From an uncultured Gammaproteobacteria bacterium (GTDB lineage: Bacteria; Patescibacteriota; Microgenomatia; Levybacterales; UBA12049): 64,000 bases of DNA. Position 1 is the first letter of the stretch. Each line of letters begins with the position of its first letter. The stretch is taken from positions 89,223 through 153,222 of the forward strand of contig CAYMJR010000002.1 in the NCBI GenBank assembly GCA_964391315.1, written 5' to 3'. The position numbers and the translations under genes are program-made. Shown here piece by piece: positions 18,590 to 59,366 of the stretch. The notes under the pieces are model-generated. The model was not told the DNA's origin. It saw only the letters and a program-made list of their open reading frames with translations, and searched no databases.

Positions 18590-19333
18590 TTAATTATTGA
18601 GAAACGCTTTTGCTACAAATCGTTTAACGAATGATTTACTTTTTTCCTTCATGACAAGTTGTTTATGCCTATTGACGCTTTTGACTGTACGGTAAGGATA
18701 TTCAAAGTATGAAGTAATTTTTTTAAATCGTCTGAAAGAGGAGTTTACGATTAATGTTTTATCATGTTCAATTTTACCTACTGATGCAAGATGAATTGCA
18801 AGGTCGATATCTTCGTGAACATCATGGTCATTAAGACAGACAGATTTTTTTACTTTTTCCCATGCGTTTTTGCGGATTGCCATATTTGGTCCTAAAAGGC
18901 AGTCATGTCCAAGCGCTGTTCGCATAAGCATAAAATATGATTTTTGTGATTGCATTGCTGCCTGTTTTGCCAATTCGTTTGATAAATCATAGGTTGTTGC
19001 TTCTCCTGAAACAGCAACGACATCATCATTGATAAAGTTTTGTTTGATTTTTTTAATCCAATCATGAGGGACGATGGTATCAGCATCGGTGCGGGCGATA
19101 ATTTCATAGCGTGCTTCATTAAATCCACGATTTCGTGCTGAAATCATCCCTTGTTGAGATTCGTTGACTATTCGTATGGGATACTTTGCGATAATGTCTG
19201 CTGTTTTATCAGTCGAGTTATTGTTAACAACAATAATCTCATCAGGTTTCTCTTCCTGTTTCATGAGTGCGTCAAGACAATTACCGATGTAATTTTCTTC
19301 ATTGTAAGCTGGTACAACAACCGAAACTTTCAT
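18590..19333 (-). CDS. Glycosyltransferase family 2
   Basis: MKVSVVVPAYNEENYIGNCLDAL..IIVVNNNSTDKTADI..TDADT has the GT-A fold DxD pattern. Confidence 0.85.
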   Translation of the reverse strand: MKVSVVVPAYNEENYIGNCLDALMKQEEKPDEIIVVNNNSTDKTADIIAKYPIRIVNESQQGMISARNRGFNEARYEIIARTDADTIVPHDWIKKIKQNFINDDVVAVSGEATTYDLSNELAKQAAMQSQKSYFMLMRTALGHDCLLGPNMAIRKNAWEKVKKSVCLNDHDVHEDIDLAIHLASVGKIEHDKTLIVNSSFRRFKKITSYFEYPYRTVKSVNRHKQLVMKEKSKSFVKRFVAKAFLNN

Positions 19334-19410
19334 AAGCCTATTGTACTATGTTGGTCAATAGACCACAAGTTTTAATGTTTTTCGCTGAAAAAATAGTATA
19401 TACTACGGTT

Positions 19411-20136
19411 ATGAATCCTAAGATCTCTGTTATTCTTGCCGCGTATAATGAAGAAAAGCTTTTGCCTCGGTGTTTAAAATCTTTACAGGCGCAAACGTTT
19501 CCTAAAGATCAATTTGAAATTATCCTTGTCGATAATAATTCAACAGATAAGACAGCAGAAATTGGAAACGAATTTGGAGTAAGAGTTTATCCATATACAA
19601 AAATACAAGGAGCAGGAGCAGCACGTAAATATGGAATAACCTACGCGAAAGGGGAAATTATTGCCGTAACTGATCCGGATAGTGTAGTTACTCCTGATTG
19701 GTTGGAACAAATAAACAAGCTTTTTGATAATCCAAAGATTGTCTGTATTGGTGGACCAGGGAGATCTGATACAAAAGATATACTGGCAGATATCATTTAT
19801 GCATTTGTTGATAATTTTTGGAGACTCAACAGGATGTTTGGTAAACCTCTTGTATGGGGGTTTAATATGGCATTTCGGAAAAAAGCATATGATGAAGTGG
19901 GTGGATTTAATGAGGAGCTTTTATCAAGTGAAGATTGGGATCTCTCATTTCGTTTGAATAATCGATTTGGAAAAAACAGTTTCTTGTTTGACTACCAATT
20001 AAAAGCATATACTTCTTCTCGTAAACTGAATAAGATGAACTATCTCGGAAAATATACTGTTGATGCATTGCGCAACTATTTTGATTTTGTCATTTTTGGT
20101 AAAAAGAAGGCTGTTCCTACATTTACTGTCCGGTAA
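19411..20136 (+). CDS. Glycosyltransferase family 2
   Basis: It reads MNPKISVILAAYNEEKLLPRCLKSL..ILVDNNSTDKTAEI..TDPDS. The gene is divergent from its paralogue at 18590-19333. The track start at 19348 is an extension. Confidence 0.85.
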   Translation: MNPKISVILAAYNEEKLLPRCLKSLQAQTFPKDQFEIILVDNNSTDKTAEIGNEFGVRVYPYTKIQGAGAARKYGITYAKGEIIAVTDPDSVVTPDWLEQINKLFDNPKIVCIGGPGRSDTKDILADIIYAFVDNFWRLNRMFGKPLVWGFNMAFRKKAYDEVGGFNEELLSSEDWDLSFRLNNRFGKNSFLFDYQLKAYTSSRKLNKMNYLGKYTVDALRNYFDFVIFGKKKAVPTFTVR

Positions 20137-20152
20137 ATTTGTTCCCCACAAT

Positions 20153-20181: not shown

Positions 20182-20195
20182 AGTCGGTGAATTCA

Positions 20196-21434
20196 ATGAA
20201 AATTGGTTTTTTTACTGATAGTTACCTGCCACAATTAGATGGTATGGCAACATCTGTTGAAATTTGTGCTCATGCATTGGAAGAACGAGGACATGAGGTA
20301 TACATTATTGCTCCAAGATATCCCCGCTATAAAGATATTACCCCAAATGTTTATCGGTTAACATCTTTTAAATTTGTTGATACACCCGAAATGCGATGGA
20401 CCTTGCAATTACCTGAAAGACCTTTACTCAAAATTCTGAGAATCAATTTTGATCTCATTCATGGACATTCTGGTGGTGGAATGACTTTGTTAGGTCTGGA
20501 AATTGCTCGAGCGAAAGGTATTCCTTTTGTCGGTACATATCACACGATGGTTAGTCATTATGCACATTATTTCTTTAATGGGAAAATAGTTACTCCAAAA
20601 ATGCTCGAATTTGCCACGAAGTTTATTGGTAATTTATGTGATTATCTTATTGCACCAACAGAACGGGTGAAAAAAGACCTTGTTATGTATGGGGTGAAAA
20701 GGCAAATTGAAGTAATTCCAAGTGGAATTGATTTAGATAATTATAAAAATATTGAGAAAGGATTTATTCGAAATTCAGTTGATGTCGCGAAAGATGCAAA
20801 AATTCTTTTGTATGTTGGGCGGTTGGGTAAAGAGAAATCAGTTGACTTTCTTATCCAGTCATTTGCATTGATTCATGAGAAAAGTCCTGATACTGTTCTT
20901 GTATTAGTTGGAGAAGGTCCAGAAAAAAGAAAATTAAAAAGACTTGTTCAATCGTTAAAGTTAAAAGACCACGTAATCTTTTTTGGCAGTGTCAATCATC
21001 ATGAGATCCCAAAAGTTTATGCTGATGCCGATATTTTTGTTTTTGCTTCTCGTACAGAAACACAGGGATTGGTGCTTCTTGAAGCACTTGCATCAAATCT
21101 TCCAGTTGTTGCTGTGGAGGATGATGCTTTTGATAATGTGATCAAAATTTCCAAAAACGGATACTTGGTAAAACCAGACGAAAAACGTTTTGCAGCAAAA
21201 ACATTGGATCTTCTCCATAATCAACGCTTATATAAAAGTTTTTCTGAAGCAGCTGGGAAAAGTGCACAAAAATTTGCAGTCGAAAATACTGCAATCTATT
21301 TGGAAAGACTCTATGAACAGGTTATTAGAGAGAAGGAAAAACAAAATAAAAATAGCATTCCAGTAAAAAGCATCAATAGCGTTAAAGAATTTTTATCAAA
21401 AGCAAACTATAAATTAAGAAAGTACTACGAATGA
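20196..21434 (+). CDS. Glycosyltransferase family 4 (GT-B, group 1)
   Basis: It has MKIGFFTDSYLPQLDGMATSV at the N-terminus and the C-terminal EX7E region FVFASRTETQGLVLLEALASNLPVVA. Confidence 0.88.
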   Translation: MKIGFFTDSYLPQLDGMATSVEICAHALEERGHEVYIIAPRYPRYKDITPNVYRLTSFKFVDTPEMRWTLQLPERPLLKILRINFDLIHGHSGGGMTLLGLEIARAKGIPFVGTYHTMVSHYAHYFFNGKIVTPKMLEFATKFIGNLCDYLIAPTERVKKDLVMYGVKRQIEVIPSGIDLDNYKNIEKGFIRNSVDVAKDAKILLYVGRLGKEKSVDFLIQSFALIHEKSPDTVLVLVGEGPEKRKLKRLVQSLKLKDHVIFFGSVNHHEIPKVYADADIFVFASRTETQGLVLLEALASNLPVVAVEDDAFDNVIKISKNGYLVKPDEKRFAAKTLDLLHNQRLYKSFSEAAGKSAQKFAVENTAIYLERLYEQVIREKEKQNKNSIPVKSINSVKEFLSKANYKLRKYYE

Positions 21435-24055
21435 ATATCCTTTTCCTCGCAAGACGCTTCTATCCTGATGTTGGCGGTGTTGAAAAGCACGTTCTGGAAA
21501 TAAGCAAACGTTTAGCTTCTCAAGGCCAAAAGATAACTATAATTACTCAATCACAAAATAGCAACAAAAAAGATATTTTAGCCAGTAATATAAGTATTAT
21601 TCGTATTCCTCAACATGGAAGAAAAAATGAAAAATTTTTTATTTGGAGATGGTTTTGGAAAAATAGAAATTTGTTACAAGCAGCTGATATTATTCATTGT
21701 CACGATGTTTTTTATTGGTATTTTCCTTTTCGTTTTCTTTACCCTCAAAAACCTGTTTTTACTACATTTCATGGATATGAAAGTTATCCGATAAAGATAA
21801 AAGCAATAGTTGTTAGAAAAATTTCAGAAGCTCTCTCTTTTGGGAATATTTGTATTGGTGATTTTATTAAGAAATGGTACGACACCAAACCAACTATCGT
21901 TTCATACGGAGCTGTTGATCGTTCAAAGTTTGAAGTTCAAAGTACAAAGTTGAGTAAGGAATCTGCGGTATTTTTTGGAAGACTTGATGAACAGACAGGA
22001 GTAGAGACGTATGTAAAAGCATTTGAAATTTTAAAAGAGAAATACCCAAAATTTGAAATGTTAGTCGTTGGAGATGGAAAATATAAAAAAAGAATTGAGA
22101 AGAAAGTGAAAGTAATCGGTTTTCAAGATACTGTTGAAAAATATCTTCATCGATATCGTTTTGCATTTGTCTCACGATATCTTTCCATACTTGAAGCCTT
22201 TGCTGCAAAACGTTTAGTTTTTGCACTTTATGATAATCCGGTGAAAGAAGATTATTTACGGATGACTCCATTTGCAAAATATATGATTATCGAAAAAGAT
22301 CCTGAGAAGCTTGTGAGAAAGGTAGAGTTTATTATGGATCATCCGAAAGTTGAAAAAAAGATGATAGAAAGCGCATATTCATTTGTCAAAAAACAAACAT
22401 GGGATAATTTAGTTGTTCTCTATCTCAACCTTTGGAAGCAAGAAAAAACTTCAAATCTTACTCAAAAAAAGAAAATATTTTCTGGAAGCATTGCTTTTAT
22501 TTTTTCAATTATTCTTTTTCTTGCTTGTATTCTGTATCAAATTAATTTACCTTATGTTGGTCCAAATGCCACAACAGCTAATGCATATTCCTTAATTGCA
22601 CACAATTTTGTCAAATTTGGCTATTTACAAACAAAATTTGCACCAGTTATATCAATCAGCCCATATTTACCAAAAGAACCTGTCTATTATTTTCATCACC
22701 CTGTTTTACTTTCTTTTACAGAATCACTTTTATTTAGAGTCTTTGGAGAAGGCTTTTGGGTAGGAAGACTTTCTGTAATACTTTTTACCTTTGGATCATT
22801 TATTTTATTATATTTTATTGGAAAAGAATCAGCAGATAAAAAATTTGGTTTTTTTGCATTTTTAACAGCTTCATTAATCCCAGGGTATACGATATTTGGA
22901 AAATTGATTGATCATGAACCCTTGGTACTTTTTTATTGCTTATTAAGCCTATTCATAATCTTGAAATATTTCCATGAAAACAAAAAAGGATATATTGTTA
23001 TGGCATTATTTATTTCAGCTTTAGGTGTTATGAGTGATTGGCCAGCTGTTTATTTCCTTCCTTGTTTTCTACCGCTTTTTTTTAAATATAAAAAAATTCG
23101 TGTTGCTGGTTTACTCTTTCTTTCATCTTTTTTGGTTATCGCTTTTTTATTAGGGAGTATATATTTCATACGACCAATAGAGTTTCTCGAACTTTGGGAG
23201 CCAATACAACATAGTAGTATACATAATCTGCTGGTTGTTCCCGAATGGCCGCTTCGTTTTTTTGCGACGACATCCATTCGAACACTTATCTATTTTAGTC
23301 CTTTGCTTGTTATTTTTGCCCTGATAAATATCTATACAATTGTAAAAAACATAAAGAGAAAACAAATATCAGATAAAGATCTAGTAATAAGTGGGTTTGC
23401 TATTTTTGGTGGTTTCCATGTGCTGTTATATTCGTATGCTTCTTTTACTCATCCATATCTTGTTTATTATTTAATTCCATTTGTAGCTTTTAGTTCGGCG
23501 ATGTTTTTACAGAGATATTATGAAAAAAAATCATATAAATTTTTATTTATGATTTTTCTTTTTTGTTTCTTATATTTAATTACCATTCAAGTATATAAAA
23601 ACAAGCAGATTCTTGCAGATCTTTGGAGATATCAACTTATTGTAGCAGTCAGTAAATATCTTGCTCCATATGAGGAAGTTCAGGTTAATGGTCTTTCTGC
23701 ATTAAACTCAGATACTTTTTGGAGATTTTCTATTATTACTTTAGGTAATGACAATGTCTATTCACTAGACACTAAAAAATATAAACACTATATTCATTCT
23801 TGTCCGCAGATATGTAAATCTGACGACGTCCAAGTGCGTTATTTAAAGAAACGATACAACTACAAGCATTTTATTAATTCTGGTGGAGAAGCTTATATAT
23901 TCTTTATTCAACAAACAAAAATTTCTTCTGAACATGAAACTATTAATTTATCTCAATCAGACCAGCAGGTTAACAAAAAAGAAAATATCTTTGATAAGAA
24001 AGTTCACGATATATATCGAAGATTAAGAGATGCACTTCATGTGCCTCAGTTTTAA
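21431..24055 (+). CDS. Fusion protein: N-terminal GT4 (GT-B) domain plus C-terminal polytopic GT-C (PMT_2/ArnT-like) domain
   Basis: 874 aa. Residues 1-~335 carry MNILFLARRFYPDVGGVEKHV and LSILEAFAAKRLVFA (GT4). Residues ~345-800 have more than 10 TM helices, with HHPVLLSFTESLLFRVFGEGFWVGRLSVILFTFGSFILLYFIG typical of GT39/83-like proteins. Its start overlaps the upstream GT4 stop (ATGA). Confidence 0.75.
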   Translation: MNILFLARRFYPDVGGVEKHVLEISKRLASQGQKITIITQSQNSNKKDILASNISIIRIPQHGRKNEKFFIWRWFWKNRNLLQAADIIHCHDVFYWYFPFRFLYPQKPVFTTFHGYESYPIKIKAIVVRKISEALSFGNICIGDFIKKWYDTKPTIVSYGAVDRSKFEVQSTKLSKESAVFFGRLDEQTGVETYVKAFEILKEKYPKFEMLVVGDGKYKKRIEKKVKVIGFQDTVEKYLHRYRFAFVSRYLSILEAFAAKRLVFALYDNPVKEDYLRMTPFAKYMIIEKDPEKLVRKVEFIMDHPKVEKKMIESAYSFVKKQTWDNLVVLYLNLWKQEKTSNLTQKKKIFSGSIAFIFSIILFLACILYQINLPYVGPNATTANAYSLIAHNFVKFGYLQTKFAPVISISPYLPKEPVYYFHHPVLLSFTESLLFRVFGEGFWVGRLSVILFTFGSFILLYFIGKESADKKFGFFAFLTASLIPGYTIFGKLIDHEPLVLFYCLLSLFIILKYFHENKKGYIVMALFISALGVMSDWPAVYFLPCFLPLFFKYKKIRVAGLLFLSSFLVIAFLLGSIYFIRPIEFLELWEPIQHSSIHNLLVVPEWPLRFFATTSIRTLIYFSPLLVIFALINIYTIVKNIKRKQISDKDLVISGFAIFGGFHVLLYSYASFTHPYLVYYLIPFVAFSSAMFLQRYYEKKSYKFLFMIFLFCFLYLITIQVYKNKQILADLWRYQLIVAVSKYLAPYEEVQVNGLSALNSDTFWRFSIITLGNDNVYSLDTKKYKHYIHSCPQICKSDDVQVRYLKKRYNYKHFINSGGEAYIFFIQQTKISSEHETINLSQSDQQVNKKENIFDKKVHDIYRRLRDALHVPQF
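21921..21955 (+). repeat. Period-7 array (GTTCAAA GTTTGAA GTTCAAA GTACAAA GTTGAGT) inside the GT4::GT-C gene
   Basis: Read directly. It is translated as SKFEVQSTKLSK. Confidence 0.85.
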
Positions 24056-24096: not shown

Positions 24097-24813
24097 ATGA
24101 AGAGCGAAATTCTAATTGTCATTCCAACATATAATGCACGGGATGGGATTATTGAAAATATAAAAAAAATTCAATCATTTGTTCCTCAAGCACATATTCT
24201 TATTGTCGACGATAATTCTCCAGACAAAACCGCTCAAATTGTAAATTCTTCTTTTGGCAATGATAAAAGAATAGAGGTTTTAGTGAGAAAGCAAAAAGGC
24301 GGCAGAGGGTCCGCAGTCATTGCAGGATTTAAAGAAGGATTAAAAAATAAAAACTTTCAGTATTTCATCGAAATGGACGCAGATCTTTGTCATAATCCCA
24401 AATATATTAAACAACTTATTACAAAATGTAAAAGAGCAGATGTAGTTATTGCATCCCGTTATTTGCCAAAGTCACGAATATATGGTTGGAACATCAAAAG
24501 AAAATTAATGAGTTTTTCTATAAATACCTATGCTAAATTATTTCTTCGCATTCCAATAAGTGATTATACAGATGGATTTCGATGTTATTCAAGAAAGGCA
24601 GTTGATTTTATTTGCTCTCATGAGATAAAATCACGAGGTTACATTGTCTTATCCGAAGTAGCATACCTTTGCTATAAAAATGGATTTACTTTTGGAGAAG
24701 TTCCAATTGATTTTCATTTCAAACAAATTACCAAGTCAAATTTGAACATGAAAGAAGTGAAGGAAGCAATGTCAACAATAATGAGATTACGATTTACAAA
24801 CTATGCAAACTAA
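24097..24813 (+). CDS. Polyprenyl-phosphate glycosyltransferase, Dpm1/Ppm1-like GT2
   Basis: It has IVIPTYNARDGI..ILIVDDNSPDKTAQIV..EMDADLCHNPKYI..ASRY..SDYTDGFRCY, which matches the dolichyl/polyprenyl-phosphate mannose synthase pattern. Confidence 0.8.
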   Translation: MKSEILIVIPTYNARDGIIENIKKIQSFVPQAHILIVDDNSPDKTAQIVNSSFGNDKRIEVLVRKQKGGRGSAVIAGFKEGLKNKNFQYFIEMDADLCHNPKYIKQLITKCKRADVVIASRYLPKSRIYGWNIKRKLMSFSINTYAKLFLRIPISDYTDGFRCYSRKAVDFICSHEIKSRGYIVLSEVAYLCYKNGFTFGEVPIDFHFKQITKSNLNMKEVKEAMSTIMRLRFTNYAN

Positions 24814-25642
24814 AAAAATTCAAATAAAAAAAACAATATCTGATAGTAAAAGAATTGAAAAATATTTTAGAAATTATTTGGCAATTGGTCCGCTTGGACT
24901 TGCCCTTTGGAGATCTGTTGAAGCAAAACATTTAGGACGTGTAACACTTAAACATCCCATTCTTGATCTTGGTTGCGGATTTGGAGAATTTGCTGTTGCT
25001 TATGCAGATGAACCAATAGACATGGGAATTGATATTAACAGTCGTGATCTTTATATAGCAGCGCAAACAAAAAAATATAAAAATCTTATGCTAGCTGATG
25101 CACGAGACCTTCCTTTTTCTGATAATACTTATGGTTCAATTTTTTCTATTAGTACACTTGAACATATTGAAAATTCAGATAAAGTCTTAAAAGAAGCGTA
25201 TAGAGTCCTTAAACCAGGGGGTATATTATTCCTAACTCTTGAGACAGATGAAGTAGATGCAGCGACATTTTATCGGCCATTTTTGAAACAAATTGGACTT
25301 CCTGGAGTAAGTAGTTTTGTTCAGAAAAAATATAATAAAATTTTCCACAGGGAGACATTACATCCAAAAGCAGTATGGAAGAAAAAAGTAGAAAAAGCAG
25401 GATTTATTTTGGAAAAGACACAAGATATTATTTCTCCAAAAGTAAACCGTCTTTTTGATATTCTGCTTGTGACAGCATGGCCATCACAAGTAGTAAAAGC
25501 TTTTCTTGGAAAAAGAATAGGTATGCATCCTCAATTTGTAACAGAATGGATGGTCAAAAAATTCTTAAAATATGTAAAAGAAGAAGAAAAAGAAGGGACA
25601 AATTTACTCATTCTTGCAAGAAAACCTAAAAAAAATGAATAA
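24803..25642 (+). CDS. Class I SAM-dependent methyltransferase
   Basis: It has motif I ILDLGCGFGEF and post-I/II motifs (LADARDLPF, LKPGGILFL). Confidence 0.8.
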   Translation: MQTKKIQIKKTISDSKRIEKYFRNYLAIGPLGLALWRSVEAKHLGRVTLKHPILDLGCGFGEFAVAYADEPIDMGIDINSRDLYIAAQTKKYKNLMLADARDLPFSDNTYGSIFSISTLEHIENSDKVLKEAYRVLKPGGILFLTLETDEVDAATFYRPFLKQIGLPGVSSFVQKKYNKIFHRETLHPKAVWKKKVEKAGFILEKTQDIISPKVNRLFDILLVTAWPSQVVKAFLGKRIGMHPQFVTEWMVKKFLKYVKEEEKEGTNLLILARKPKKNE

Positions 25643-27372: not shown

Positions 27373-27848
27373 GGCTTATTGCTTGCTATCATTTTTTTTA
27401 CAAGCTGGGGCAGTTTCTTAGGATCATCTGGCCAATGAGAAGTAATATTACTTAATATTTTGAGTACTTCTGTATCTTCTTCAGCCCAATGAGAAATACC
27501 ATCATGAATATAATCTTTACCTCTTCCGGATCCAATCAATTTTACAGGTATTTTTTCATAATGCAAGTAATTTCTAATTGTTTCAAATGGTCGATAGAGA
27601 AGGAATGACGTAATTGAATATACAATTGGAATTTTATTACTAAGAGCAAGTCCTACTCCTACGCCAATTAGTGTTTGTTCGGCAGCTCCGACATTAATAA
27701 ATCGTTCAGGAAAGTCTCGGCGAATGTCATCCCACATTCGATATCCTAAATCATTAACGACAATATAAATGTCTTTATTTTTTTGCATCTCTTTATGGAT
27801 ACATTCTGCAAAAAAAGCTCGCATTGATGTAAAGTGTTGTTGCTTCAT
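27348..27848 (-). CDS. Transketolase-like pyrimidine-binding subunit, short form (166 aa; the usual C-terminal domain is absent)
   Basis: It has FINVGAAEQTLIGVGVGLALSNKIPIVYSITSFLLYRPFETIRN (Transket_pyr pattern). Its start overlaps the stop of the partner subunit. Confidence 0.65.
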   Translation of the reverse strand: MKQQHFTSMRAFFAECIHKEMQKNKDIYIVVNDLGYRMWDDIRRDFPERFINVGAAEQTLIGVGVGLALSNKIPIVYSITSFLLYRPFETIRNYLHYEKIPVKLIGSGRGKDYIHDGISHWAEEDTEVLKILSNITSHWPDDPKKLPQLVKKMIASNKPWYVNLKR

Positions 27849-28576: not shown

Positions 28577-28579
28577 AAT

Positions 28580-29527: not shown

Positions 29528-29531
29528 GATT

Positions 29532-29560: not shown

Positions 29561-29566
29561 CTGACT

Positions 29567-51696: not shown

Positions 51697-53277
51697 TTAA
51701 TCTTTAAACTTGTTATATATGCTGCTTCCTACTTTTGAAATAGGATCATAATAATCAAGTCTTCTATAGTGATTTTTCATGTTCATAACTTCAGGATATT
51801 TGGATTTCCCATGGCCAGTAATTTTATAGATTATCAAATTATCTTTTTCATCAATTACATGAAATTTCTCCCATGTGTATTGAGTTAGCAAAGATTCAAG
51901 TTCAAATTTATTTGTATAAGAGAGGGCAAGAGGATGAAGGTAGGGCCCTGTATAGAGTCCGTAGGGATCAGATATTGCCGCAGAGGATATAAATACAGTT
52001 TTTTTATTTTTTAGATATAAATTAATTTCTTTTTCGAGTTTCTCATTACCTACATCTTGCCTATTTACACCGAGTATTTCAATTTGACAACAGTTGTCTA
52101 ACTGCGGTAACGCAAAATGGCTTTCTATAAACAAACTGTCTTTTGGTAATGTTTTAACAAAAGCCTCCTCTCTCATATATGGAACAGGAGCTCTTAAAAG
52201 GTTTAAAGCAGGAAGAGATACAAAGAGTAAATAAAATATTACCACAGGTGCGAGAAAACGATATTTGTTTACAAGGTATCCCGTGAGAAAAGCGAAACCA
52301 AATCCTGCAATGATTGAATATCTACCCATTAAAACAGAATCCCACCATTGATTTATATACACAATTGGTAGTAACCATAACAGTCCAATAAAGAAAAACA
52401 TTTTATTTTTTATATAACAGACTAGTAATGATAGAAATCCTAGAATGACCACAAGACTTGTATAGTTTCTTAGAACAGGAATAAAATTTCTCAAAAAAAT
52501 AAGAAATTTATTGGAGCTAATAACGCTGACTTGTGTAATATTCCCTAAATAGAGACTAGTAAGAGTTAATAGAGGATTAATGTTGAGTATTATAGAAAAA
52601 ATGAGAATTCTTGCCGCTAAGGAGAAAGAAAGAGTTAAAAAGGTTATTATAAAAGTCTTAAAAAGATCATTTTTCTTTTTTAAAAATACTATCAAAAGAT
52701 ATAACGGTATCCATAATAAAACGGCTGAATAGGTAAGAAATGCTATATTCAAAAATATTATTGATAAAATAAAATAAACTTTTCGGTTTTCTGAAAGATA
52801 TTTTGTAAGTGAGTATAGAGATGTAAAGAAAAAGAAAAGATAGGAAGTTTCCACTGTTATCGTTACATTGGTGATCCAAAAAAGTGGGGTAAGTGACATA
52901 ATTGTTGCTGAGATAAGACCAATATTTTTATTGCTAATAAATGTGATGACTTTGTAAAAGTAATAAACAGTAATCGTAGCAAATAAAATTTGAGCAAAAA
53001 TTACTACATATGCAGGGTCATTATAAAAATAGCTTGCAAGGTGAAAGATAGGCCAGAAAAGCATAATGTAAATTTCATGAATTGGATTATGCCCACTAGT
53101 AACTGCGTAATAAAAGTTCGGGTTTTTAAAGAGATTAAGATATTCTTTAGAGTCAAAGAGAACATCGTTGGCATTAATAAATGGAATCCTTGAGAGAATG
53201 AAGAGGATAAGAAGACTAATACCTACTTTTTTCTTTTTAATAAAGGGAGTCACGTTTTTTATTTGTTTTTTACCCAT
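51697..53277 (-). CDS. Polytopic GT-C-like glycosyltransferase
   Basis: About 526 aa from MGKKQIKN, with ~12 TM helices. It has a first-loop acidic motif (LFDSKEYLNLF) and a soluble C-terminal domain. Confidence 0.55.
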   Translation of the reverse strand: MGKKQIKNVTPFIKKKKVGISLLILFILSRIPFINANDVLFDSKEYLNLFKNPNFYYAVTSGHNPIHEIYIMLFWPIFHLASYFYNDPAYVVIFAQILFATITVYYFYKVITFISNKNIGLISATIMSLTPLFWITNVTITVETSYLFFFFTSLYSLTKYLSENRKVYFILSIIFLNIAFLTYSAVLLWIPLYLLIVFLKKKNDLFKTFIITFLTLSFSLAARILIFSIILNINPLLTLTSLYLGNITQVSVISSNKFLIFLRNFIPVLRNYTSLVVILGFLSLLVCYIKNKMFFFIGLLWLLPIVYINQWWDSVLMGRYSIIAGFGFAFLTGYLVNKYRFLAPVVIFYLLFVSLPALNLLRAPVPYMREEAFVKTLPKDSLFIESHFALPQLDNCCQIEILGVNRQDVGNEKLEKEINLYLKNKKTVFISSAAISDPYGLYTGPYLHPLALSYTNKFELESLLTQYTWEKFHVIDEKDNLIIYKITGHGKSKYPEVMNMKNHYRRLDYYDPISKVGSSIYNKFKD

Positions 53278-53397
53278 AAGTATTAGCTCAAGAACTATTC
53301 TATTATACAGCAATTGCCTATCTTTTCCTTTTGCATAGATAATGTTTATTTTTTTATTTTTAATTTTATAATATAATTGTTCAGATTGTATTAGTAT

Positions 53398-55146
53398 ATG
53401 AAATTTATACTAAAAGTTATGAAAATAAAAAAAACTTTGATATTGGGATTTCTTAGTTTCTTATTCTACTTTTTTGCAAGTATTTATATAACTTTTCCAC
53501 TTATTTTTCATCTTGGAGACCTGGTGACCGGACTTGGAGATGAATTTGTTATTGCATGGACACAGAATTATGTCATTCATGCGTTAACGACCAACCCTCT
53601 CTCTCTATTTGAAGCAAATCTTTATTTTCCTTATCATAATACACTTGCTTATTCTGACCTCCATCTTATTTCAAGTATTCTAGGAATAATTCCTCTTGCC
53701 CTGTTTGGTCAACCAATAGCGGTTTTTAATTTTACCGTTATTTCATCACTTATTCTTTTGGGCTTTTCAATATACTTATTATGTTTTTATCTAACGAAAA
53801 ACTTTTGGGCATCGCTACTTGCTGGAACATTGGTAATATTTTCACCTGCAGTTTTAGATAAGGTAGTACATGTTCAAATTCTGGCAATTGAATGGGTTCC
53901 TCTAGCGATTCTTTTTTTCATCAAGTTTTTAGACAAGCAAAAATCCCGGTACATTATGGTCAGTTTGTTATTTTTTCTAATCCAAACGTACAACAGTTTC
54001 ATGCCAGGATATTTTATCCTTTTTTCTTATGTCTTTATTTTTGTTTCGCGATTTCTAAAGAAGAAAAAACAAACATTAAGAATTGTTACTAAAAAAAATA
54101 TTTTGTTAGTTATTCTTTCATTTGTTCTTCTTATTCCTATTATCATCCCATATTACAAAGTATCAAAAGAATTTAACTATACTCGTGATATTCATGATGC
54201 AGTACATTTTGCAATACAACCTGAGGATTTGTTTTATACAATACCTCTTTCTCGATTGGAACCATTTTTAAATGGATTACCATTCAATCAGCATGCAGAG
54301 AATGGAGAATTTAAACCAGGATATCTTGGTTTTATATTTACCTTATTAACAGCTTTTATCGTTTATCGATTCATTCGATACTTTAAGAAGAATAGTGATG
54401 GAATGAATACATTTGTCCTCATTGGATTTTTAGGTCTCGTATTAAGTTTGGGTCCTGTGTTACATCTGGGAAGACAAACTGTCCATATCCCTTTTCCAAT
54501 TCCGCTTCCATATACATTGTTTTATTATCTCTTGCCAGGTTTTCAAGGTTTTCGAAATTCTGCAAGATTTGAGGCGCTATTTATTCTTTTAATAGCAATA
54601 GCAATTGCCTTAGCTCTTAATACTCTTTTAAAGAAATATTCTGCAAAAAAACAAATTTTTGTATATTTCTTGTTAATAGCAGGATGTGTTATTGAATTTA
54701 ATTTTCCGATGAAATTTTATCCAGTTCCGCAAAGAAAAAACTTTCCACAAGTGTATTCCTGGCTTAACACAACACCCAAATATGCATCTGTAATTATCAT
54801 GCCGGCATACAACTGGAATATGCCTTATGCAGCAGAAGAAATAAAAAGAGAATATTTTTCAACGGAAAATTTTAGAAGAACGGTAAATGGATACAGTGGC
54901 TTTTCACCACCACCTTGGCAGGAGTTATTAATGAATCTCCATAAAAATTTTCCAGACGGAAAGACTCTTAAAACTCTTAAAAATTTAGGAATTACCTATA
55001 TCATTATTGATAAAGAGATGTATGATAAAGGATTTAAAGAGAGAAATGAGAATGTTTCTGGAGAAAGAGTTGTGAATTTGCTCAAAATAAATAATAGAGT
55101 AAAATTTATCAAACAAATTGGAGATTATTATATTTTTACACTTTAA
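53398..55146 (+). CDS. Polytopic membrane protein with C-terminal soluble domain, GT-C-like
   Basis: 582 aa with ~12 TM helices. It has an early loop GLGDEFVIAWTQNYVIHAL...ANLYFPYHNTLAYSD. Confidence 0.5.
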   Translation: MKFILKVMKIKKTLILGFLSFLFYFFASIYITFPLIFHLGDLVTGLGDEFVIAWTQNYVIHALTTNPLSLFEANLYFPYHNTLAYSDLHLISSILGIIPLALFGQPIAVFNFTVISSLILLGFSIYLLCFYLTKNFWASLLAGTLVIFSPAVLDKVVHVQILAIEWVPLAILFFIKFLDKQKSRYIMVSLLFFLIQTYNSFMPGYFILFSYVFIFVSRFLKKKKQTLRIVTKKNILLVILSFVLLIPIIIPYYKVSKEFNYTRDIHDAVHFAIQPEDLFYTIPLSRLEPFLNGLPFNQHAENGEFKPGYLGFIFTLLTAFIVYRFIRYFKKNSDGMNTFVLIGFLGLVLSLGPVLHLGRQTVHIPFPIPLPYTLFYYLLPGFQGFRNSARFEALFILLIAIAIALALNTLLKKYSAKKQIFVYFLLIAGCVIEFNFPMKFYPVPQRKNFPQVYSWLNTTPKYASVIIMPAYNWNMPYAAEEIKREYFSTENFRRTVNGYSGFSPPPWQELLMNLHKNFPDGKTLKTLKNLGITYIIIDKEMYDKGFKERNENVSGERVVNLLKINNRVKFIKQIGDYYIFTL

Positions 55147-56347
55147 TTTTCAACTTTTTATCTACTAAATACATAATTACTAAAGCGAGAGGAAAATAGA
55201 CGACTAACAATTTCGGAAGATATTCGAGTGAAAGGACAGGGAACATATTGGCAATCGCAAATAATCCTAAGAACATTTCTTTTTTGTACTGTTTTGCAAG
55301 TATAAAGGTACTGAGTATTAATGGAATAAAGATAGGATATGAATATCTAAATGAAGAAACCATAATCCATGGCTGATCTGATGTCGGTTGAGGAAGTAAA
55401 ATAATAAAATTGGCAAATCCAATAAAACATAAAGTTGCAATATACGGTGGAAGCTTTATATGTCCTCTCAATTTAGCAAACAAGACAAAAAATGGTAAGA
55501 GTAGACTTAATCCCCATAATTTATATTCTGAGTAAAAAGCATTGAACATTGTTAAAGGGTGTCTTAAGGTAGTATCCCACATGTGGGCATGGTTGTTATA
55601 ATAGATGCCTTGGCAGGGAAGAGAGAATTCACATAATGGCCACATAGGGTTTCCAACAGCCAAATAGTTTCGAACGTACCAGAATAGTCCAAGAATTGAA
55701 ACAGGAATAAGAAAAATAATAAATCTTTTAATTGATACTATTTGGAAAATAGTTCTCCAGTAAGCAATAGTTAAGACAGATACATAAGCCAATGCAGAGT
55801 ATTTTGATCCAATCATCATCCCAAATAATATTCCCAGTAACAATGCGTATAAGTTTGTTTTTTTCGGTTTTTGAAGCAAAATAATTGCTAACGTAAAATA
55901 GTTTGCAAGCCACACATCAACACTGACAGCATTGAACCAGCGTGAAATAACAGTCAATGTGCAAATACTTTCCGCAAATAACAGCGACATGTAATATTCT
56001 AATTTGAAGGTTCGTGCCAGATTAAAACAACAAAAGAATAAAACTACAATTGCAATAAGGTTGGAAATAGTTAAGGGAATATGAAGCAGCATTAATAGCG
56101 CATTGATAGCTTCTGAAGCACCTGGGTTAAATATTCCCATGAAAATCTTTGGTGTAAAATGTGATGGTTGGATAAATGTCCCATTTAATATCGTTTGAGA
56201 AATAGGAATATGATAAGTATAACTGTCACCTTGTGCAGGAATTGGATGGATAATTCCTTGGAAAAAATAATAGGTAAGTAAATAAAGAAAAAAAAGTAAA
56301 CCAATATATGCAAATAACTGTGCTGGTTTCATAGGTTTTGTAAACAT
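55136..56347 (-). CDS. Polytopic GT-C-like membrane protein
   Basis: 403 aa with ~11 TM helices. Its first-loop motif AQGDSYTYHIP is related to those of 46750 (EDGYHT) and 56509 (FDALWYH). Confidence 0.5.
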   Translation of the reverse strand: MFTKPMKPAQLFAYIGLLFFLYLLTYYFFQGIIHPIPAQGDSYTYHIPISQTILNGTFIQPSHFTPKIFMGIFNPGASEAINALLMLLHIPLTISNLIAIVVLFFCCFNLARTFKLEYYMSLLFAESICTLTVISRWFNAVSVDVWLANYFTLAIILLQKPKKTNLYALLLGILFGMMIGSKYSALAYVSVLTIAYWRTIFQIVSIKRFIIFLIPVSILGLFWYVRNYLAVGNPMWPLCEFSLPCQGIYYNNHAHMWDTTLRHPLTMFNAFYSEYKLWGLSLLLPFFVLFAKLRGHIKLPPYIATLCFIGFANFIILLPQPTSDQPWIMVSSFRYSYPIFIPLILSTFILAKQYKKEMFLGLFAIANMFPVLSLEYLPKLLVVYFPLALVIMYLVDKKLKIKV

Positions 56348-56508: not shown

Positions 56509-58149
56509 ATGTGTCGTATAATAGAGCTGATGTTTACGTTTGCCTTTCTTGTGGGAATATATTCATATCTCATCGTTTTTTTTGGAATACAAGGATGGTT
56601 GTATAGAGATGCAGTCTTGTGGTTGACTGTTTTATTTTGGGGTAGTTTTTTAGGATGGAGGATTAAGAAGATAAGATGGAATAAAAGGATTAGATTGTTT
56701 GAAAATAAGCCTTTATGCTTATTAGTCATTCTGTTGAGTTTGCAGACAGTTGTTAATTTAATTGGTGTGTTTGGTCCAGAGTTAGGATTTGATGCGCTCT
56801 GGTATCATCTGACGCTGCCAAAACTATATCTGCAACACCATTCTGTGTTCTTTATTCCTGGTGGTTTGCTTTATTATAGCGCTATGCCAAAACTTGCTGA
56901 GGTGCTTTATATAGCAGGAATTAGTTTTGGTAATGAAACAATTGCAAAGTGTATCCATTTTCTTTTTAGTCTGTTAACTTGTCTTGCAATCTACAAATTA
57001 TCACGAAAATTTTTCTCTCCATTGATTTCACTCATTGCAGTAGTTATTTTCTCTGCAAATCTTGTTGTAGGATGGGAATCCATTTCCGCTTATATCGATC
57101 TGATCCGAACATTCTTTGAAGTTATGGCATTGTGGGCATTTATTAATTGGGTCGAGATGAAAAAGCAAAAGTGGTTAGTTTGGTCTGCTGTCATGATGGG
57201 ACTTGCAATAACAACAAAAGTATTGGCTATAGGCAGTTTGTTAATATTTATAATACTTATTTTAGTAGGGATAAGAGAAAAAAGATGGATAATGAGGATG
57301 AAAGACGGTGGAGTGTTTGCGTTGATTGCTTTTATTGTACCGTTGCCGTGGTTTGTGTTCTCATATATTCATACAGGGAATCCTGTGTATCCGTTTTTTT
57401 CAGAGATTTATCCAGTTTCGCCATCGGAGATTAATATTTTTAGTTTTCTAAAAGAAGTATGGATTCTTTTTACACAAGCAGCTGATCCAATTTCGCCGGT
57501 TTATTTGATGTTTTTGCCTTTTATTGTTTTGTTATTTATTAAATCAAAAAATAAGTTCGGGGTAACCAGTTTAAGAATAATTGGATTATATTCTTTGTTA
57601 TCAATTATTGTCTGGTATTTTACTCCAAGAACTGGTGGAGGACGATTTATCATTCCTTATCTTCCCGCATTCTCATTACTTTGTGCCAGTATCGTCTCTG
57701 AAGTCTTAGAAAATAAAAAGAGATATAATTCGTATTTAGGAGAGTTTTTATTAGGTGTTATTATTTTTGTATCAGTATTCTCAATTGGTTACCGATTTGT
57801 GGCAAATAAAAAATATATTCCGGTCATTTTAGGCAAACAGACTAAAGCAGCATTTTTATCATCTCACTTGAATTTTTCCTATGGAGATTTTTATGATACA
57901 GATGGCTATTTCAAAACGCATATAAAACCAACGGATACTGTTTTGTTATTTGGTTTTCATAATTTGTATTACGTTGATTTTCCTTCTATTGATGCATCAT
58001 GGTTACAACCAGGAGATTATTTTAACTATATTGCGACACAAAAAACTGATCTCCCTAAACAATATGGAAATTGGGTTTTAATATACGAAAATGAGCGAAC
58101 AATGGTAAAATTGTATAAAATGCCTGAGCACTTGTATTCATTCAAATGA
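56509..58149 (+). CDS. Polytopic GT-C-like glycosyltransferase (PMT_2/ArnT-like)
   Basis: 546 aa with ~13 TM helices. It has the loop GPELGFDALWYHLTLPKLYL and a soluble C-terminal domain. The true start may be the internal Met (MFTFAF). Confidence 0.6.
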   Translation: MCRIIELMFTFAFLVGIYSYLIVFFGIQGWLYRDAVLWLTVLFWGSFLGWRIKKIRWNKRIRLFENKPLCLLVILLSLQTVVNLIGVFGPELGFDALWYHLTLPKLYLQHHSVFFIPGGLLYYSAMPKLAEVLYIAGISFGNETIAKCIHFLFSLLTCLAIYKLSRKFFSPLISLIAVVIFSANLVVGWESISAYIDLIRTFFEVMALWAFINWVEMKKQKWLVWSAVMMGLAITTKVLAIGSLLIFIILILVGIREKRWIMRMKDGGVFALIAFIVPLPWFVFSYIHTGNPVYPFFSEIYPVSPSEINIFSFLKEVWILFTQAADPISPVYLMFLPFIVLLFIKSKNKFGVTSLRIIGLYSLLSIIVWYFTPRTGGGRFIIPYLPAFSLLCASIVSEVLENKKRYNSYLGEFLLGVIIFVSVFSIGYRFVANKKYIPVILGKQTKAAFLSSHLNFSYGDFYDTDGYFKTHIKPTDTVLLFGFHNLYYVDFPSIDASWLQPGDYFNYIATQKTDLPKQYGNWVLIYENERTMVKLYKMPEHLYSFK

Positions 58150-59366
58150 AAATATTAAAATTTCTTTTTATTCTTCTTCTTATACTTTTTCCTATTGGAG
58201 AGATTTTGCGGTTTGATGTAGGAAATAATATTGTTCTTAAACCACTAGATTTTGTGGCAGGGATAACAGTAGTTTGGTGGATGATATTGCAAGCTCAAAG
58301 TTCAAAGTTCAAAATTCAAAATTTAAAGAAGCACTATTTTATTTTACCATTAGTTTCTTTTGTCGCGATTGGATTTGCTGCATTAGTTATTAATCTTGCT
58401 TGGCTCAAACCACAAGAATTTATAGTTAGTTTATTATACCTACTTCGCTTTGTTTCATACGCATTTTTACTTCCCGTCACACTACAATTCGATAAAATTT
58501 TTAGAAGAAAAATTATTTTTATTCTTTTAATTGATGGTTTGGTAATTCTTATTTTGGGTTATTTTCAATATTTTTTCTTTAATAGTCTGAAGAGTCTTTA
58601 TTACCTTGGTTGGGATGAGCACAAACATCGAATTTTTTCAACATTTTTTGATCCCAATTTCACCGGAGCGTTTTATGTACTATATTTACTGATTATTGCA
58701 GGATTACTGTATGAGGTTTATCGAAAACAAAAACAGCAGGAAACGATTGCGTTGAGTGTTCTTTTACTTTTGACACTCCTAGCAGTATTTTTAACATTTT
58801 CCCGATCAGCTTTGTTGATGTTAATTGTCGGTGGAATAACTTTTTTTGTTCTTATCAAGAAGAAAAAGTTATTATTTTTTCTTTTTGGTGCAATTCTTTT
58901 ATTTGGTATTATTGCATCTCCCAAATTTCACGACGAAAATATGAATTTATTCCGTGAAGCTTCAAGTAAAGCACGGGTCGCAAATATCGAGACAGCGTTA
59001 CGTATTATTCAGGATCGGCCAATTCTTGGGGTAGGATTTAATAGTTATCGATACACAAAATCCTTATATCATTTACAACACGATTGGGTGAATGCACCTT
59101 CTCATGCTGATGCAGGAGTAGATAATAGTTATCTTTTTGTCTTGGCAACAACAGGTATCATAGGTTTCGGCTTTTATCTCTGGCTATGGATTGCTATGAT
59201 AAAAAACGCATTCGTCCTTTACCATAAAAAGATGATGATAGGAGCAATTATTGTTATTTCATCAATTTTTGCAATTTTTACAAATGCTCTTTTTATTAAT
59301 AGTCTTTTCTTTTCTCCGCTTATGCTTTGGTTGTGGCTTGAAGTAGGATTGATTGAAGAGTTTTAG
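58146..59366 (+). CDS. O-antigen ligase / polymerase family protein (Wzy_C domain)
   Basis: 406 aa and polytopic. It has FLTFSRSALLMLIVGG, the periplasmic loop RPILGVGFNSYRY, and SHADAGVDNSYLFVLATTGIIG. Confidence 0.75.
   Translation: MKILKFLFILLLILFPIGEILRFDVGNNIVLKPLDFVAGITVVWWMILQAQSSKFKIQNLKKHYFILPLVSFVAIGFAALVINLAWLKPQEFIVSLLYLLRFVSYAFLLPVTLQFDKIFRRKIIFILLIDGLVILILGYFQYFFFNSLKSLYYLGWDEHKHRIFSTFFDPNFTGAFYVLYLLIIAGLLYEVYRKQKQQETIALSVLLLLTLLAVFLTFSRSALLMLIVGGITFFVLIKKKKLLFFLFGAILLFGIIASPKFHDENMNLFREASSKARVANIETALRIIQDRPILGVGFNSYRYTKSLYHLQHDWVNAPSHADAGVDNSYLFVLATTGIIGFGFYLWLWIAMIKNAFVLYHKKMMIGAIIVISSIFAIFTNALFINSLFFSPLMLWLWLEVGLIEEF
58293..58327 (+). repeat. Period-7 array (GCTCAAA GTTCAAA GTTCAAA ATTCAAA ATTTAAA) inside the O-antigen-ligase-like gene
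   Basis: Read directly. It is translated as AQSSKFKIQNLKK in the loop after the second TM segment. Confidence 0.9.

Follow-up and report, generated by a model that had tools for sequence, protein, structure and literature searches.

A conserved locus rich in GT-C glycosyltransferases as the probable main cell-envelope glycan locus of Levybacteria

Multi-component transmembrane glycosylation systems such as GtrA/B/C, CsbB–GtcA–YfhO, GacI/J/K/L, and ArnC–ArnT provide the general frame (PMC8035078) for the locus described here, a set of adjoining glycan-assembly genes at 18590-59366 of a 64-kb stretch of DNA, the whole of which was analyzed and is referred to as the window. The nearest precedent that has been worked out is the lactococcal polysaccharide pellicle (PSP) pathway, in which a GacI-type GT2 primes undecaprenyl monophosphate, cytoplasmic glycosyltransferases (GTs) extend the chain, Wzx flips it, and GT-C enzymes polymerize and attach it; the parts are WpsA/B, WpsC–F, WpsG (Wzx), and WpsH and WpsJ (GT-C enzymes proposed as polymerase and ligase; PMC10821137). 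Judged from its homologues and related loci, the organism belongs to the Levybacteria within the candidate phyla radiation (CPR), in keeping with the small, streamlined genome that the initial annotation of this DNA had supposed. The region is probably the main cell-envelope glycan locus of Levybacteria, vertically inherited and enlarged in this organism by accessory modules. The mechanism proposed for it was inferred from enzyme families, membrane topologies, catalytic-residue conservation, synteny, and base composition. Genes and proteins are named by their first coordinate.

As in the multi-component systems, the locus encodes GtrB/Dpm1-type GT2s (26392, 24097, and 33450), a Wzx-type flippase (as GacK), GT-C enzymes with acidic first outer loops, adjacent GT-A and GT-C genes, and a small membrane protein beside a GT-C that in relatives also lies beside a Dpm1-like GT2. 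It differs from them in having ten GT-C enzymes per three donor synthases in a single locus, compared to the three GT-A/GT-C pairs dispersed over 4.2 Mb in Bacillus subtilis (PMC8035078). Further differences are that no GtrA-family flippase was found in the 64-kb window and that three GT-C domains are each joined to a cytoplasmic GT2 or GT4 part that does not appear to be a donor synthase. With the lactococcal pathway it shares a Dpm1/GacI-type GT2 in a locus lacking a phosphoglycosyltransferase, Wzx together with cytoplasmic GTs predicted to be able to extend a polyprenyl-monophosphate-linked sugar, and GT-C enzymes proposed as polymerase and ligase, but it holds far more GT-C enzymes, a Wzy_C protein, and GT2–GT-C fusions, and has no detectable WpsB/GacJ homologue.

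Two further groups of systems are comparable. In mycobacterial and corynebacterial arabinogalactan and lipoarabinomannan (LAM) synthesis (Ppm1/DPA, the latter decaprenylphosphoryl arabinose; Emb, Aft, Mpt, and PimE), a GT-C battery extends a wall glycan outside the membrane with polyprenyl-phosphate sugars, as predicted here, and AftA and AftD are among the nearest folds to 37965 and 53398. The differences lie in the absence of sequence-level orthology, in the 6-deoxy-hexosamine and methylated sugars predicted for the locus, and in its setting in a CPR bacterium with a ~1 Mb genome and the enzymes in one locus. Wzx/Wzy-dependent O-antigen, capsule, and secondary wall polymer loci resemble it in their Wzx, Wzy_C, GT2/GT4, and nucleotide-sugar genes, in a guanine plus cytosine (GC) content under the genome level, and in variable genes within a conserved frame. 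They differ in that no phosphoglycosyltransferase, chain-length regulator, LCP, or WaaL-type partner was identified in the window and that GT-C enzymes here outnumber the cytoplasmic GTs.

Pfam and NCBIfam scans of every open reading frame (ORF) in the window gave 33 real genes in 18590-59366 with 97.8% of the region coding, fewer than the ~36 first counted, and the inventory of families proposed at that time was recovered almost completely. It comprises eight GT2 domains (18590, 19348, 24097, 26392, 33450, 50775, and the N-terminal parts of 40451 and 48580), three GT4 domains (20187, 44274, and the N-terminal part of 21431), and six methyltransferases, four of them class I (24803, 25614, 29567, and 39507) and two of the Methyltransf_13/14 sugar C-methyltransferase type (36231 and 45430). 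The nucleotide-sugar enzymes 28580, 32279, 34171, and 35357 with a split transketolase (27348/27845), one Wzx-like protein (43001; Polysacc_synt_3 209 bits), and one Wzy/WaaL-like protein (58146; Wzy_C 75 bits) complete the list. An ORF of 136 amino acids (aa) at 32231-32641 on the minus strand was taken as spurious because of its overlap with the FnlA-like gene and its lack of a family match. GT-C domains fill ~16 kb, or 39% of the region, and family and fold assignments support its early description as a glycan-assembly cluster dominated by lipid-linked-sugar (GT-C) chemistry. An AT richness formerly judged by eye was borne out by computation, the composition differing from both flanks: GC is 31.7% within the region vs. 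38.4% in the left and 41.6% in the right flank, and GC at third codon positions (GC3) per gene is 0.233 vs. 0.300 outside (Mann-Whitney p = 5e-5), a difference that persists for soluble proteins alone.

The locus encodes ten polytopic proteins, all of which are GT-C enzymes (six assigned by Pfam, two by paralogy, and two by AlphaFold models with Foldseek). They are given here with their transmembrane (TM) helices, and as backbone or accessory according to the gene order in relatives described below:

21431-24055, plus strand: GT4–GT-C fusion of 874 aa, with GT4 at residues 1-337 and a PMT_2 part of ~9 TM helices from residue 349
30404-32209, minus strand: GT-C, PTPS_related, with ~12 TM helices; PF10131 at 55.8 bits (gathering score 26.4); backbone gene
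37965-39500, plus strand: GT-C of a CPR-restricted family without a Pfam model, assigned by AlphaFold and Foldseek
40451-42988, plus strand: GT2–GT-C fusion of 845 aa, assigned by Pfam; backbone gene
46750-48576, plus strand: GT-C of a LIC_10190-like subfamily with ~12 TM helices; PMT_2 at 23.4 bits, under the gathering score
48580-50778, plus strand: second GT2–GT-C fusion, 732 aa; GT2 68 bits and PMT_2 35 bits; backbone gene
51697-53313, minus strand: GT-C; PMT_2 40 bits; accessory
53398-55146, plus strand: GT-C of the DUF6311/DUF7657 family with a C-terminal alpha/beta outer domain
55136-56347, minus strand: short GT-C-like protein of 403 aa with ~9-10 TM helices and no Pfam match; accessory
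56509-58149, plus strand: GT-C; PMT_2 43.6 bits; backbone gene

The initial annotation had proposed about ten GT-C-like proteins, and the profile and structure searches that it recommended assigned the polytopic proteins to GT-C and none to a transporter; the transporter alternative fails because family, paralogy, and fold matches are all to GT-C. Hydropathy gave 9-13 TM segments in each of the ten. The Pfam gathering score was passed by PMT_2 in the C-terminal parts of 21431, 40451, and 48580 and in 51697 and 56509, and by PTPS_related in 30404. The protein 46750 is a paralogue of 56509 (E 3e-22) and 55136 a paralogue of 46750 (E 2e-8), and all three have weak matches to NCBIfam LIC_10190 (21 bits for 55136). 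No MIR domain was found in any of the proteins by Pfam scans, and none qualified for the PMT (GT39) class.

For the two remaining proteins the fold was decisive. No family match was found for 37965 in the Pfam or NCBIfam scans, and its 73 homologues are all from Patescibacteria and all annotated “hypothetical”; its AlphaFold model (predicted local distance difference test, pLDDT, 87) matched AftA in the Protein Data Bank (PDB) at E 3.5e-4, then DPY19, STT3, PglB, ArnT, and Pmt, with transporters at a Foldseek probability of 0.1 or less. The protein 53398 has >388 CPR homologues at 50-68% identity and a model with pLDDT 90, for which the top 28 Foldseek matches were all GT-C, from STT3 (E 1e-7) to ArnT. 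Taken together, the two models are helical bundles plus a small C-terminal alpha/beta domain and matched GT-C structures in the PDB at probability 1.0 vs. transporters at 0.1-0.28 or less with TM-scores near 0.1; the credible folds are AftA, DPY19, STT3, AglB, PglB, AftD, and ArnT. An identification of 53398 as an oligosaccharyltransferase was also considered, as the fold fits (STT3 E 1e-7, TM-score ~0.5), but was rejected for want of a WW/WWD motif in the sequence, and no sequence match to STT3 families was found in Pfam or NCBIfam.

Conserved acidic residues were located in the first outer loop of eight of the ten, conservation being defined as ≥90% among orthologues in the loop that follows TM helix 1 of the GT-C part. 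In 40451 the motif YxMD357E358WH is conserved at ≥90%, as are D298 in GD298QGW of 48580 (with W301 conserved too), E157 and D158 in E157D158GYH of 46750 (with Y160 and H161), and D95 in FD95ALWYH of 56509 (with W98, Y99, and H100). The equivalent loop of 30404 lies after TM2 and has conserved E58, D61, and H65 (E58 and D61 at ≥90%), while that of 37965 lies after TM1 and contains FD36xQ, with D36 at ≥90% and nearly invariant. In 53398, D48 is invariant and G47 and E49 are nearly so. Single sequences were available for 55136, in which GD41SYTYH after TM1 matches the subfamily motif, and for 51697, with ND50…D54. The use of lipid-phosphate-linked donors by these enzymes is predicted from their co-location with three polyprenyl-phosphate sugar synthase genes, which are listed here with the other stand-alone GTs:

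26392-27372, minus strand: GtrB/ArnC-type polyprenyl-phosphate sugar synthase, GT2 with two C-terminal TM helices (~227-296); accessory
24097-24813, plus strand: Dpm1-type polyprenyl-phosphate sugar synthase, GT2 without a TM helix
33450-34208, minus strand: second Dpm1-type synthase, GT2 without a TM helix, within the 2-acetamido-sugar module
18590-19333, minus strand: soluble GT2, ordinary MftF/HpsE-like and not Dpm1-like; Glycos_transf_2 114 bits; accessory
19348-20136, plus strand: soluble GT2, EpsD/MftF-like, the nearest paralogue of the GT2 domains fused to GT-C
20187-21434, plus strand: GT4; Glycos_transf_1 149 bits and Glyco_transf_4 112 bits; accessory
44274-45425, plus strand: GT4 glycosyltransferase; Glycos_transf_1 91 bits; backbone gene
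50775-51521, plus strand: soluble GT2; 75 bits; backbone gene

The protein 26392 aligned over its full length with the GtrB structure 5EKP (247 bits; residues 12-314 to 27-330), with 140 bits to ArnC and 235 bits to PgfS, its best named match, and appears to be a full-length GtrB orthologue and polyprenyl-phosphate sugar synthase. Both 24097 and 33450 have the Pyrococcus Dol-P-Man synthase 5MLZ as best PDB match (80 bits over residues 4-231, with ArnC and GtrB next, and 84.5 bits over residues 12-245, respectively), pair up with each other at 68 bits, lack TM helices as in the Dpm1/GacI type, and carry MDADLxHxPK-type motifs (EMDADLCHNPK and HMDSDLTNDPK). With the NCBIfam matches of 24097 to AglJ, PpgS, PgfS, and ArnC, the two are best described as putative Dol-P-Man synthase-like polyprenyl-phosphate sugar synthases. 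These whole-domain matches to 5MLZ and 5EKP agree with the earlier identification of the three genes as stand-alone Dpm1/GtrB-like synthases. Among the remaining GTs, 18590 matched mftF-like and HpsE models best in NCBIfam with ArnC at 26 bits, and 19348 matched the N-terminal domains of 40451 and 48580 at 48-52 bits by phmmer and the 40451 GT2 profile at 147 by hhalign. The GT4 20187 reached 220 bits against the NCBIfam model Mgs (cut-off 400; residues 4-386 aligned to model positions 1-394 of 398), and this resemblance along its full length to an alpha-monoglucosyl-diacylglycerol synthase suggests that it may make a glycolipid anchor.

Three of the GT-C modules are joined to cytoplasmic GT domains. 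The 40451 protein consists of a cytoplasmic GT2 (residues 1-225), a conserved TM hairpin (233-272), an 11-TM PMT_2 domain, and a C-terminal outer domain, and belongs to a family of >411 homologues. Among the best 120, which are 44-60% identical, nearly all are full length and ~5 are short fragments; those bearing names are from Patescibacteria or Levybacteria. Invariant residues are D37, D91, E176, and D177 in the GT2 and Y354, M356, D357, E358, W359, H360, and Y471-D472 in the GT-C (K470 being nearly invariant). From the cytoplasmic GT domain to the first outer loop there are three TM helices in 40451 and one each in 48580 and 21431, and the DE loop of 40451 faces outward because three TM helices part it from the cytoplasmic GT2. 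In the related loci L055-L065 the 40451 orthologue occurs as separate adjacent GT2 and GT-C genes, sometimes flanking the 37546–37965 pair, and since the split genes remain neighbors, this Rosetta-stone relationship is evidence that the two halves probably work together. The GT2 domain of 48580 resembles rhamnosyltransferase and HpsN models in NCBIfam.

The GT4–GT-C protein 21431 has a different distribution. In 36 relatives the orthologue is a GT4 protein standing alone, 340-370 aa long and aligned to residues 1-337, and the two halves were never joined in the top 150 matches of a search of 1.84 billion representatives, so a widespread fusion was rejected; an assembly artefact was likewise dismissed, as the exact 874-aa protein was called in seven independent assemblies. 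The protein therefore appears to be a real, recent, and lineage-specific fusion. An A7 homopolymer lies at the fusion junction (22463-22471), where slippage could join or part the two frames.

Synteny was evaluated in 71 related loci, obtained from a scan of one genome per species, mostly Levybacteria, and annotated with the proteins of the window. In the recurring order, IleRS–FtsW–L21–ParB–signal peptidase (present in loci reaching far enough upstream, ~21 of 71) precede a backbone of GT4, optionally a methyltransferase, the GT-C 30404, optionally a 46750-like gene, 40451, optionally a Dpm1-like GT2, the C-methyltransferase 45430, Wzx, GT4, 48580, GT2, the GT-C 56509, and Wzy_C. Orthologues among the related loci numbered 53 for Wzx, 48 for 40451, 44 for the GT4 44274, 33 each for 30404 and 48580, 32 for 45430, 27 for the GT2 50775, and 15 for 46750, and a 24803 orthologue followed the GT4 gene in nine relatives. 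The right border was the same in the Levybacteria relative L081 (fusion protein 55% identical), with a 53398-like gene, a PMT_2 gene as counterpart of 56509 at the same position, Wzy_C, an Ig-like protein (14578-15396), and the atp operon. In the window, the left flank holds FtsW, MurG, FtsA, FtsZ, a histidine kinase, a pilin-like protein, IleRS, a second FtsW/RodA, L21, ParB, and signal peptidase, and the right flank tRNA-Thr (60096-60168) and then the atp operon.

The span from signal peptidase to Wzy_C is 41 kb with ten GT-C enzymes here vs. 14-21 kb with 3-5 in relatives. The extra modules, rare or absent in related loci, are 18590/19348/20187, the GT-C half of 21431, 26392, the transketolase–dehydratase–methyltransferase block, 51697, and 55136 (18590 and 51697 occur in 1/71 each, 20187 and 26392 in 0/71), while subsets of relatives also have the FnlA block and the 37546–37965 pair. 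Low GC is typical of many surface-glycan loci, and GC of the cluster was below that of the housekeeping flank in 13/13 measurable relatives (mean −5.3 points), so that it is a conserved property of the locus. Gene order and composition thus indicate a lineage-conserved, vertically inherited locus and not an accessory island, with only the inserted modules accessory; these alone are candidates for exchange between genomes.

The genes for sugar tailoring, export, and polymerization, together with two small neighbors, were as follows:

24803-25642, plus strand: class I S-adenosylmethionine (SAM) methyltransferase; Methyltransf_11 71 bits
25614-26417, plus strand: class I SAM methyltransferase; Methyltransf_25 56 bits
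27348-28576, minus strand: split transketolase-like pair, thiamine pyrophosphate-binding part at 27845-28576 and pyrimidine-binding part at 27348-27848; Transketolase_N and Transket_pyr
28580-29527, minus strand: nucleoside diphosphate-sugar 4,6-dehydratase/epimerase (short-chain dehydrogenase/reductase); Epimerase 163 bits and GDP_Man_Dehyd 152 bits
29567-30463, plus strand: class I SAM methyltransferase; Methyltransf_23 82 bits
32279-33445, plus strand: UDP-GlcNAc 4,6-dehydratase/5-epimerase of FnlA/PseB type; Polysacc_synt_2 320 bits
34171-35385, minus strand: UDP-GlcNAc 2-epimerase; Epimerase_2 246 bits, wecB 203 bits (cut-off 210)
35357-36229, minus strand: RmlD-like reductase; RmlD_sub_bind 42 bits
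36231-37502, minus strand: sugar C-methyltransferase type (zinc-binding, SAM, and C-terminal domains); Methyltransf_14 180 bits and Methyltransf_13 67 bits
37546-37968, plus strand: small membrane protein, its 3' end overlapping the start of 37965
39507-40388, minus strand: class I SAM methyltransferase; Methyltransf_23 101 bits
43001-44251, plus strand: Wzx-type (MOP) flippase; Polysacc_synt_3 209 bits, MOP flippase 165 bits, and TuaB 137 bits; the most conserved backbone gene
45430-46659, minus strand: second sugar C-methyltransferase type; Methyltransf_14 157 bits; backbone gene
58146-59366, plus strand: Wzy_C-domain protein with ~11 TM helices; Wzy_C 75 bits
59363-60070, minus strand: membrane-anchored Ig-like (Glucodextran_B/Big) protein between Wzy_C and the atp operon; Glucodextran_B 77 bits

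An FnlA-type dehydratase, an RmlD-like reductase, and a 2-epimerase form the established route to UDP-2-acetamido-2,6-dideoxy-L-hexoses, and 32279 (FnlA 412 bits and PseB 322 bits, both under equivalog cut-offs), 35357, and 34171 would constitute such a three-enzyme route; the module recurs in seven related loci (L011, L030, L039, L043, L061, L068, and L071). The dehydratase 28580 matched LegB-like and dTDP-glucose dehydratase models at ~134 bits each in NCBIfam. The transketolase-like pair, with NCBIfam matches of 129 and 63 bits, occurs together with 28580 and 29567 in one relative (L029) and is predicted to put a two-carbon branch on a keto-sugar. Its 166-aa component at 27348-27848 lacks Transketolase_C and shares 25 bases with the 3' end of the GtrB gene 26392, whose insertion may have truncated it.

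The small protein 37546 has 17 orthologues, every one upstream of a 37965 homologue, with the core FPPPEI…KIVGYxQYYGYPFYFD, and because its 3' end overlaps the start of 37965, the sequence suggests that the two may be translationally coupled. No Pfam or NCBIfam family was found for it, nor support as a GtrA-type flippase or GacJ/WpsB-type activator. The possibility that it is the detached N-terminus of longer (650-670 aa) 37965 homologues was discarded, as there was no BLASTP match and the extra length is C-terminal. The part KIVGYxQYYGYPFYFD of its core (orthologues L016-L071) resembles PYKDIFYPYG near the first outer loop of 37965. The Wzy_C domain is common to polymerases, WaaL ligases, and PglL-type oligosaccharyltransferases, and 58146 has matches of 50 bits to the O-glycosylation ligase TIGR03097 and 36 bits to the repeat-unit polymerase TIGR04370, both under cut-offs, with no PDB relative by sequence. 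The Ig-like protein 59363 weakly matches PamR, a CPR pilus protein described recently (36 bits), and is a possible acceptor or glycan-binding partner.

In the proposed pathway, the nucleotide-sugar enzymes would supply unusual sugars, the FnlA-type, RmlD-like, and 2-epimerase proteins giving a 2-acetamido-2,6-dideoxy-L-hexose and the two C-methyltransferases with the transketolase-like pair giving branched or methylated sugars. An oligosaccharide would be built on polyprenyl-phosphate at the inner membrane face by the soluble GT2s and GT4s along with the cytoplasmic parts of the three fusions. Priming would be either by a Dpm1/GacI-type GT2 acting on polyprenyl monophosphate as in lactococcal PSP, proposed because no phosphoglycosyltransferase lies in the window, or by an enzyme encoded elsewhere. 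Wzx 43001 would carry the lipid-linked glycan outward, and the three GtrB/Dpm1-type synthases would make polyprenyl-phosphate monosaccharides. Polymerization, attachment, and decoration of the glycan from lipid-linked donors would take place outside the membrane through the ten GT-C enzymes together with the Wzy_C protein, with the fusions coupling a cytoplasmic transferase and an outward-facing GT-C in a single polypeptide.

Several observations weigh against this reading. No Bac_transf, Glycos_transf_4 (MraY), or Wzz domain and no LCP ligase was found in any ORF of the window, and the pathway as drawn is also incomplete there for a GtrA-type flippase; genes for priming and chain-length control could be located outside the window. 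In 21431, the first outer loop of the GT-C half lacks a conserved acidic residue, with D197-W198 invariant elsewhere, and the sugar identities come from family-level matches that are all under equivalog cut-offs. The Wzy_C protein 58146 could, from its sequence, be either a polymerase or a ligase/O-oligosaccharyltransferase.

Alternative explanations concern the fusions, the origin of the locus, and its product. The GT2 domains of 40451 and 48580 might themselves be polyprenyl-phosphate sugar synthases, so that each fusion makes and transfers its own donor. This is kept as a rival, although a doubtful one, because the split-genome GT2 of 40451 is a ~310-aa GT-A protein with two TM helices, the layout of GtrB, CsbB, and ArnC, and adjoins its GT-C gene like the CsbB–YfhO or YkcC–YkcB pairs (PMC8035078); the hairpin region of 40451 (228-302) is also strongly conserved. 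Sequence comparison places the fused modules elsewhere, with the soluble GT2s 18590 and 19348 (phmmer 46-52 bits; hhalign 147 to 19348 and 144 to 18590 vs. 50 to GtrB, confined to the GT-A core), and the family profile gave TarS 53.7 and TarP 44.5 bits compared to GtrB 23 and ArnC 21 bits in the PDB. Their NCBIfam results include EpsD and rhamnosyltransferase and no ArnC, PgfS, or PpgS match, and their motifs are unlike DADLxxxP. The fused domains are thus likely ordinary glycan-elongating GT2s rather than donor synthases, and since those of 40451 and 48580 group with ordinary GT2s, the five candidate donor synthases of the initial annotation, which counted fusions, are reduced to three. Moreover, a genuine Dpm1-like (24097-type) GT2 is the next gene downstream of the 40451 orthologue in 11 loci and of the 37546–37965 pair in seven, and this adjacency in relatives suggests that the GT-C modules of 40451 and 37965 may draw their donor from the neighboring Dpm1-like GT2, the likelier source for 40451. 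As regards origin, the notion of a recently acquired horizontal genomic island, an aspect raised when the region was first described, could draw on a GC content 7-10 points under the flanks, on the tRNA-Thr at the right edge (60096-60168), and on the rarity or absence of 26392, 20187, 18590/19348, 27348-29567, 51697, and 55136 in related loci. It is highly improbable, and for the locus as a whole was regarded as refuted: in relatives of 40-60% identity the backbone is bounded by the same housekeeping genes, its proteins are conserved as much as the flanking ParB and signal peptidase, the low GC is common to 13/13 relatives, and no integrase, transposase, or repeat boundary was found in the window.

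With regard to the product, the locus might mainly be a protein O-glycosylation machine in which PMT-like GT-C enzymes and a PglL/PilO-like Wzy_C protein modify pilins, S-layer, or other surface proteins. The PMT_2 domains, counted in seven proteins and scoring above the gathering threshold in 21431, 40451, 48580, 51697, and 56509, point in this direction, as do the invariant DE motif in the first outer loop of 40451 (like PMTs), the best named match of 26392 to PgfS of the Streptococcus mutans protein-glycosylation system (235 bits), the best NCBIfam match of 58146 to an “O-glycosylation ligase” (50 bits), the Ig-like surface protein as a conserved neighbor, and the oligosaccharyltransferase-like fold of 53398. 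PMT_2 is, however, a general GT-C family that includes teichoic acid and rhamnan decorators (PMC8035078), MIR domains are lacking, 53398 has no WWD motif, every “ligase” match is under its cut-off, and the many cytoplasmic GTs, Wzx, and the abundance of GT-C enzymes are at least as consistent with polymer assembly. As the main function this is unlikely, and the protein O-glycosylation and wall-polymer readings are mutually compatible. Less probable still is a lipoglycan of lipomannan (LM)/LAM type, in which 20187 would make glucosyl-diacylglycerol as a glycolipid anchor and the GT-C enzymes would extend it outside with polyprenyl-phosphate sugars. Actinobacterial LM/LAM synthesis is likewise dominated by GT-C chemistry using Dpm1-like donors, 20187 matches a monoglucosyl-diacylglycerol synthase over its full length (220 bits), and the window has no LCP ligase. 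Yet 20187 falls short of the equivalog cut-off of 400 bits and stands outside the conserved pathway because it is missing from all 71 related loci, and Wzx and Wzy_C point to a carrier-lipid route.

Under the preferred reading of a conserved envelope-glycan locus, ~4% of a ~1 Mb genome (size estimated from the contigs of relatives) is devoted to surface-glycan synthesis. Because it adjoins division and wall genes, is conserved across the phylum, and takes up this share of the genome, it is a good candidate pathway for the main non-peptidoglycan wall component. To our knowledge, almost nothing is known of the surface glycans of CPR bacteria, which live attached to other cells. Full-text literature searches returned no paper linking Patescibacteria to GT-C enzymes and nothing relevant on CPR GT-C enzymes or GT2–GT-C fusions; the recent reviews and the transposon sequencing (Tn-seq) study consulted mention at most an unspecified extracellular polysaccharide. 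New elements are the CPR lineage, the GT-C density, a conserved GT2–GT-C fusion family (>400 members), a GT-C family without a Pfam model (37965) with an obligatory small membrane partner, and the placement of DUF6311 in the GT-C fold. Every component is of a known kind and the logic matches Firmicutes and Actinobacteria systems, so that this is an extension to a new lineage with no new principle.

A bolder interpretation, which we put forward only tentatively and consider rather unlikely, is that in Levybacteria, and perhaps many CPR, most of the synthesis of the principal wall glycopolymer takes place outside the membrane by a GT-C battery, a mycobacterial arabinogalactan logic evolved independently in bacteria of ~1 Mb genome size. 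The same joint interpretation would include conserved single-polypeptide GT2–GT-C enzymes coupling cytoplasmic to extracytoplasmic transfer and two CPR-restricted or nearly restricted GT-C families, one without a Pfam model and with an obligatory small membrane partner. If it held, the variable modules would set a surface “serotype” governing host attachment and phage recognition.

Other features of the window and its relatives were recorded. A pilin-like protein with an N-terminal methylation motif (11838-12407) adjoins IleRS and is a possible glycosylation target. Directly after ftsZ lies a 428-aa protein with ~12 TM helices and no Pfam family (6160-7446) that could be another envelope enzyme, and a 522-aa protein at 8488-10056 also has no Pfam family. 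Two FtsW/RodA (SEDS) paralogues, at 275-1345 in a dcw-like block and at 15317-16447 beside IleRS, match each other at 149 bits. Many public metagenome-assembled genome records with the locus (L010-L072) are titled “uncultured Gammaproteobacteria,” “Pseudomonadales,” or “Negativicutes” and look like mislabelled third-party assemblies. In the atp operon (60231-64000, minus strand), an apparent truncation of the ATP synthase alpha subunit was discounted, as the frame runs off the window end. The F1 genes stand in the order alpha–beta–gamma–epsilon and not the canonical alpha–gamma–beta–epsilon, an arrangement repeated in six independent assemblies of the organism, while the relative L081 has the canonical order.

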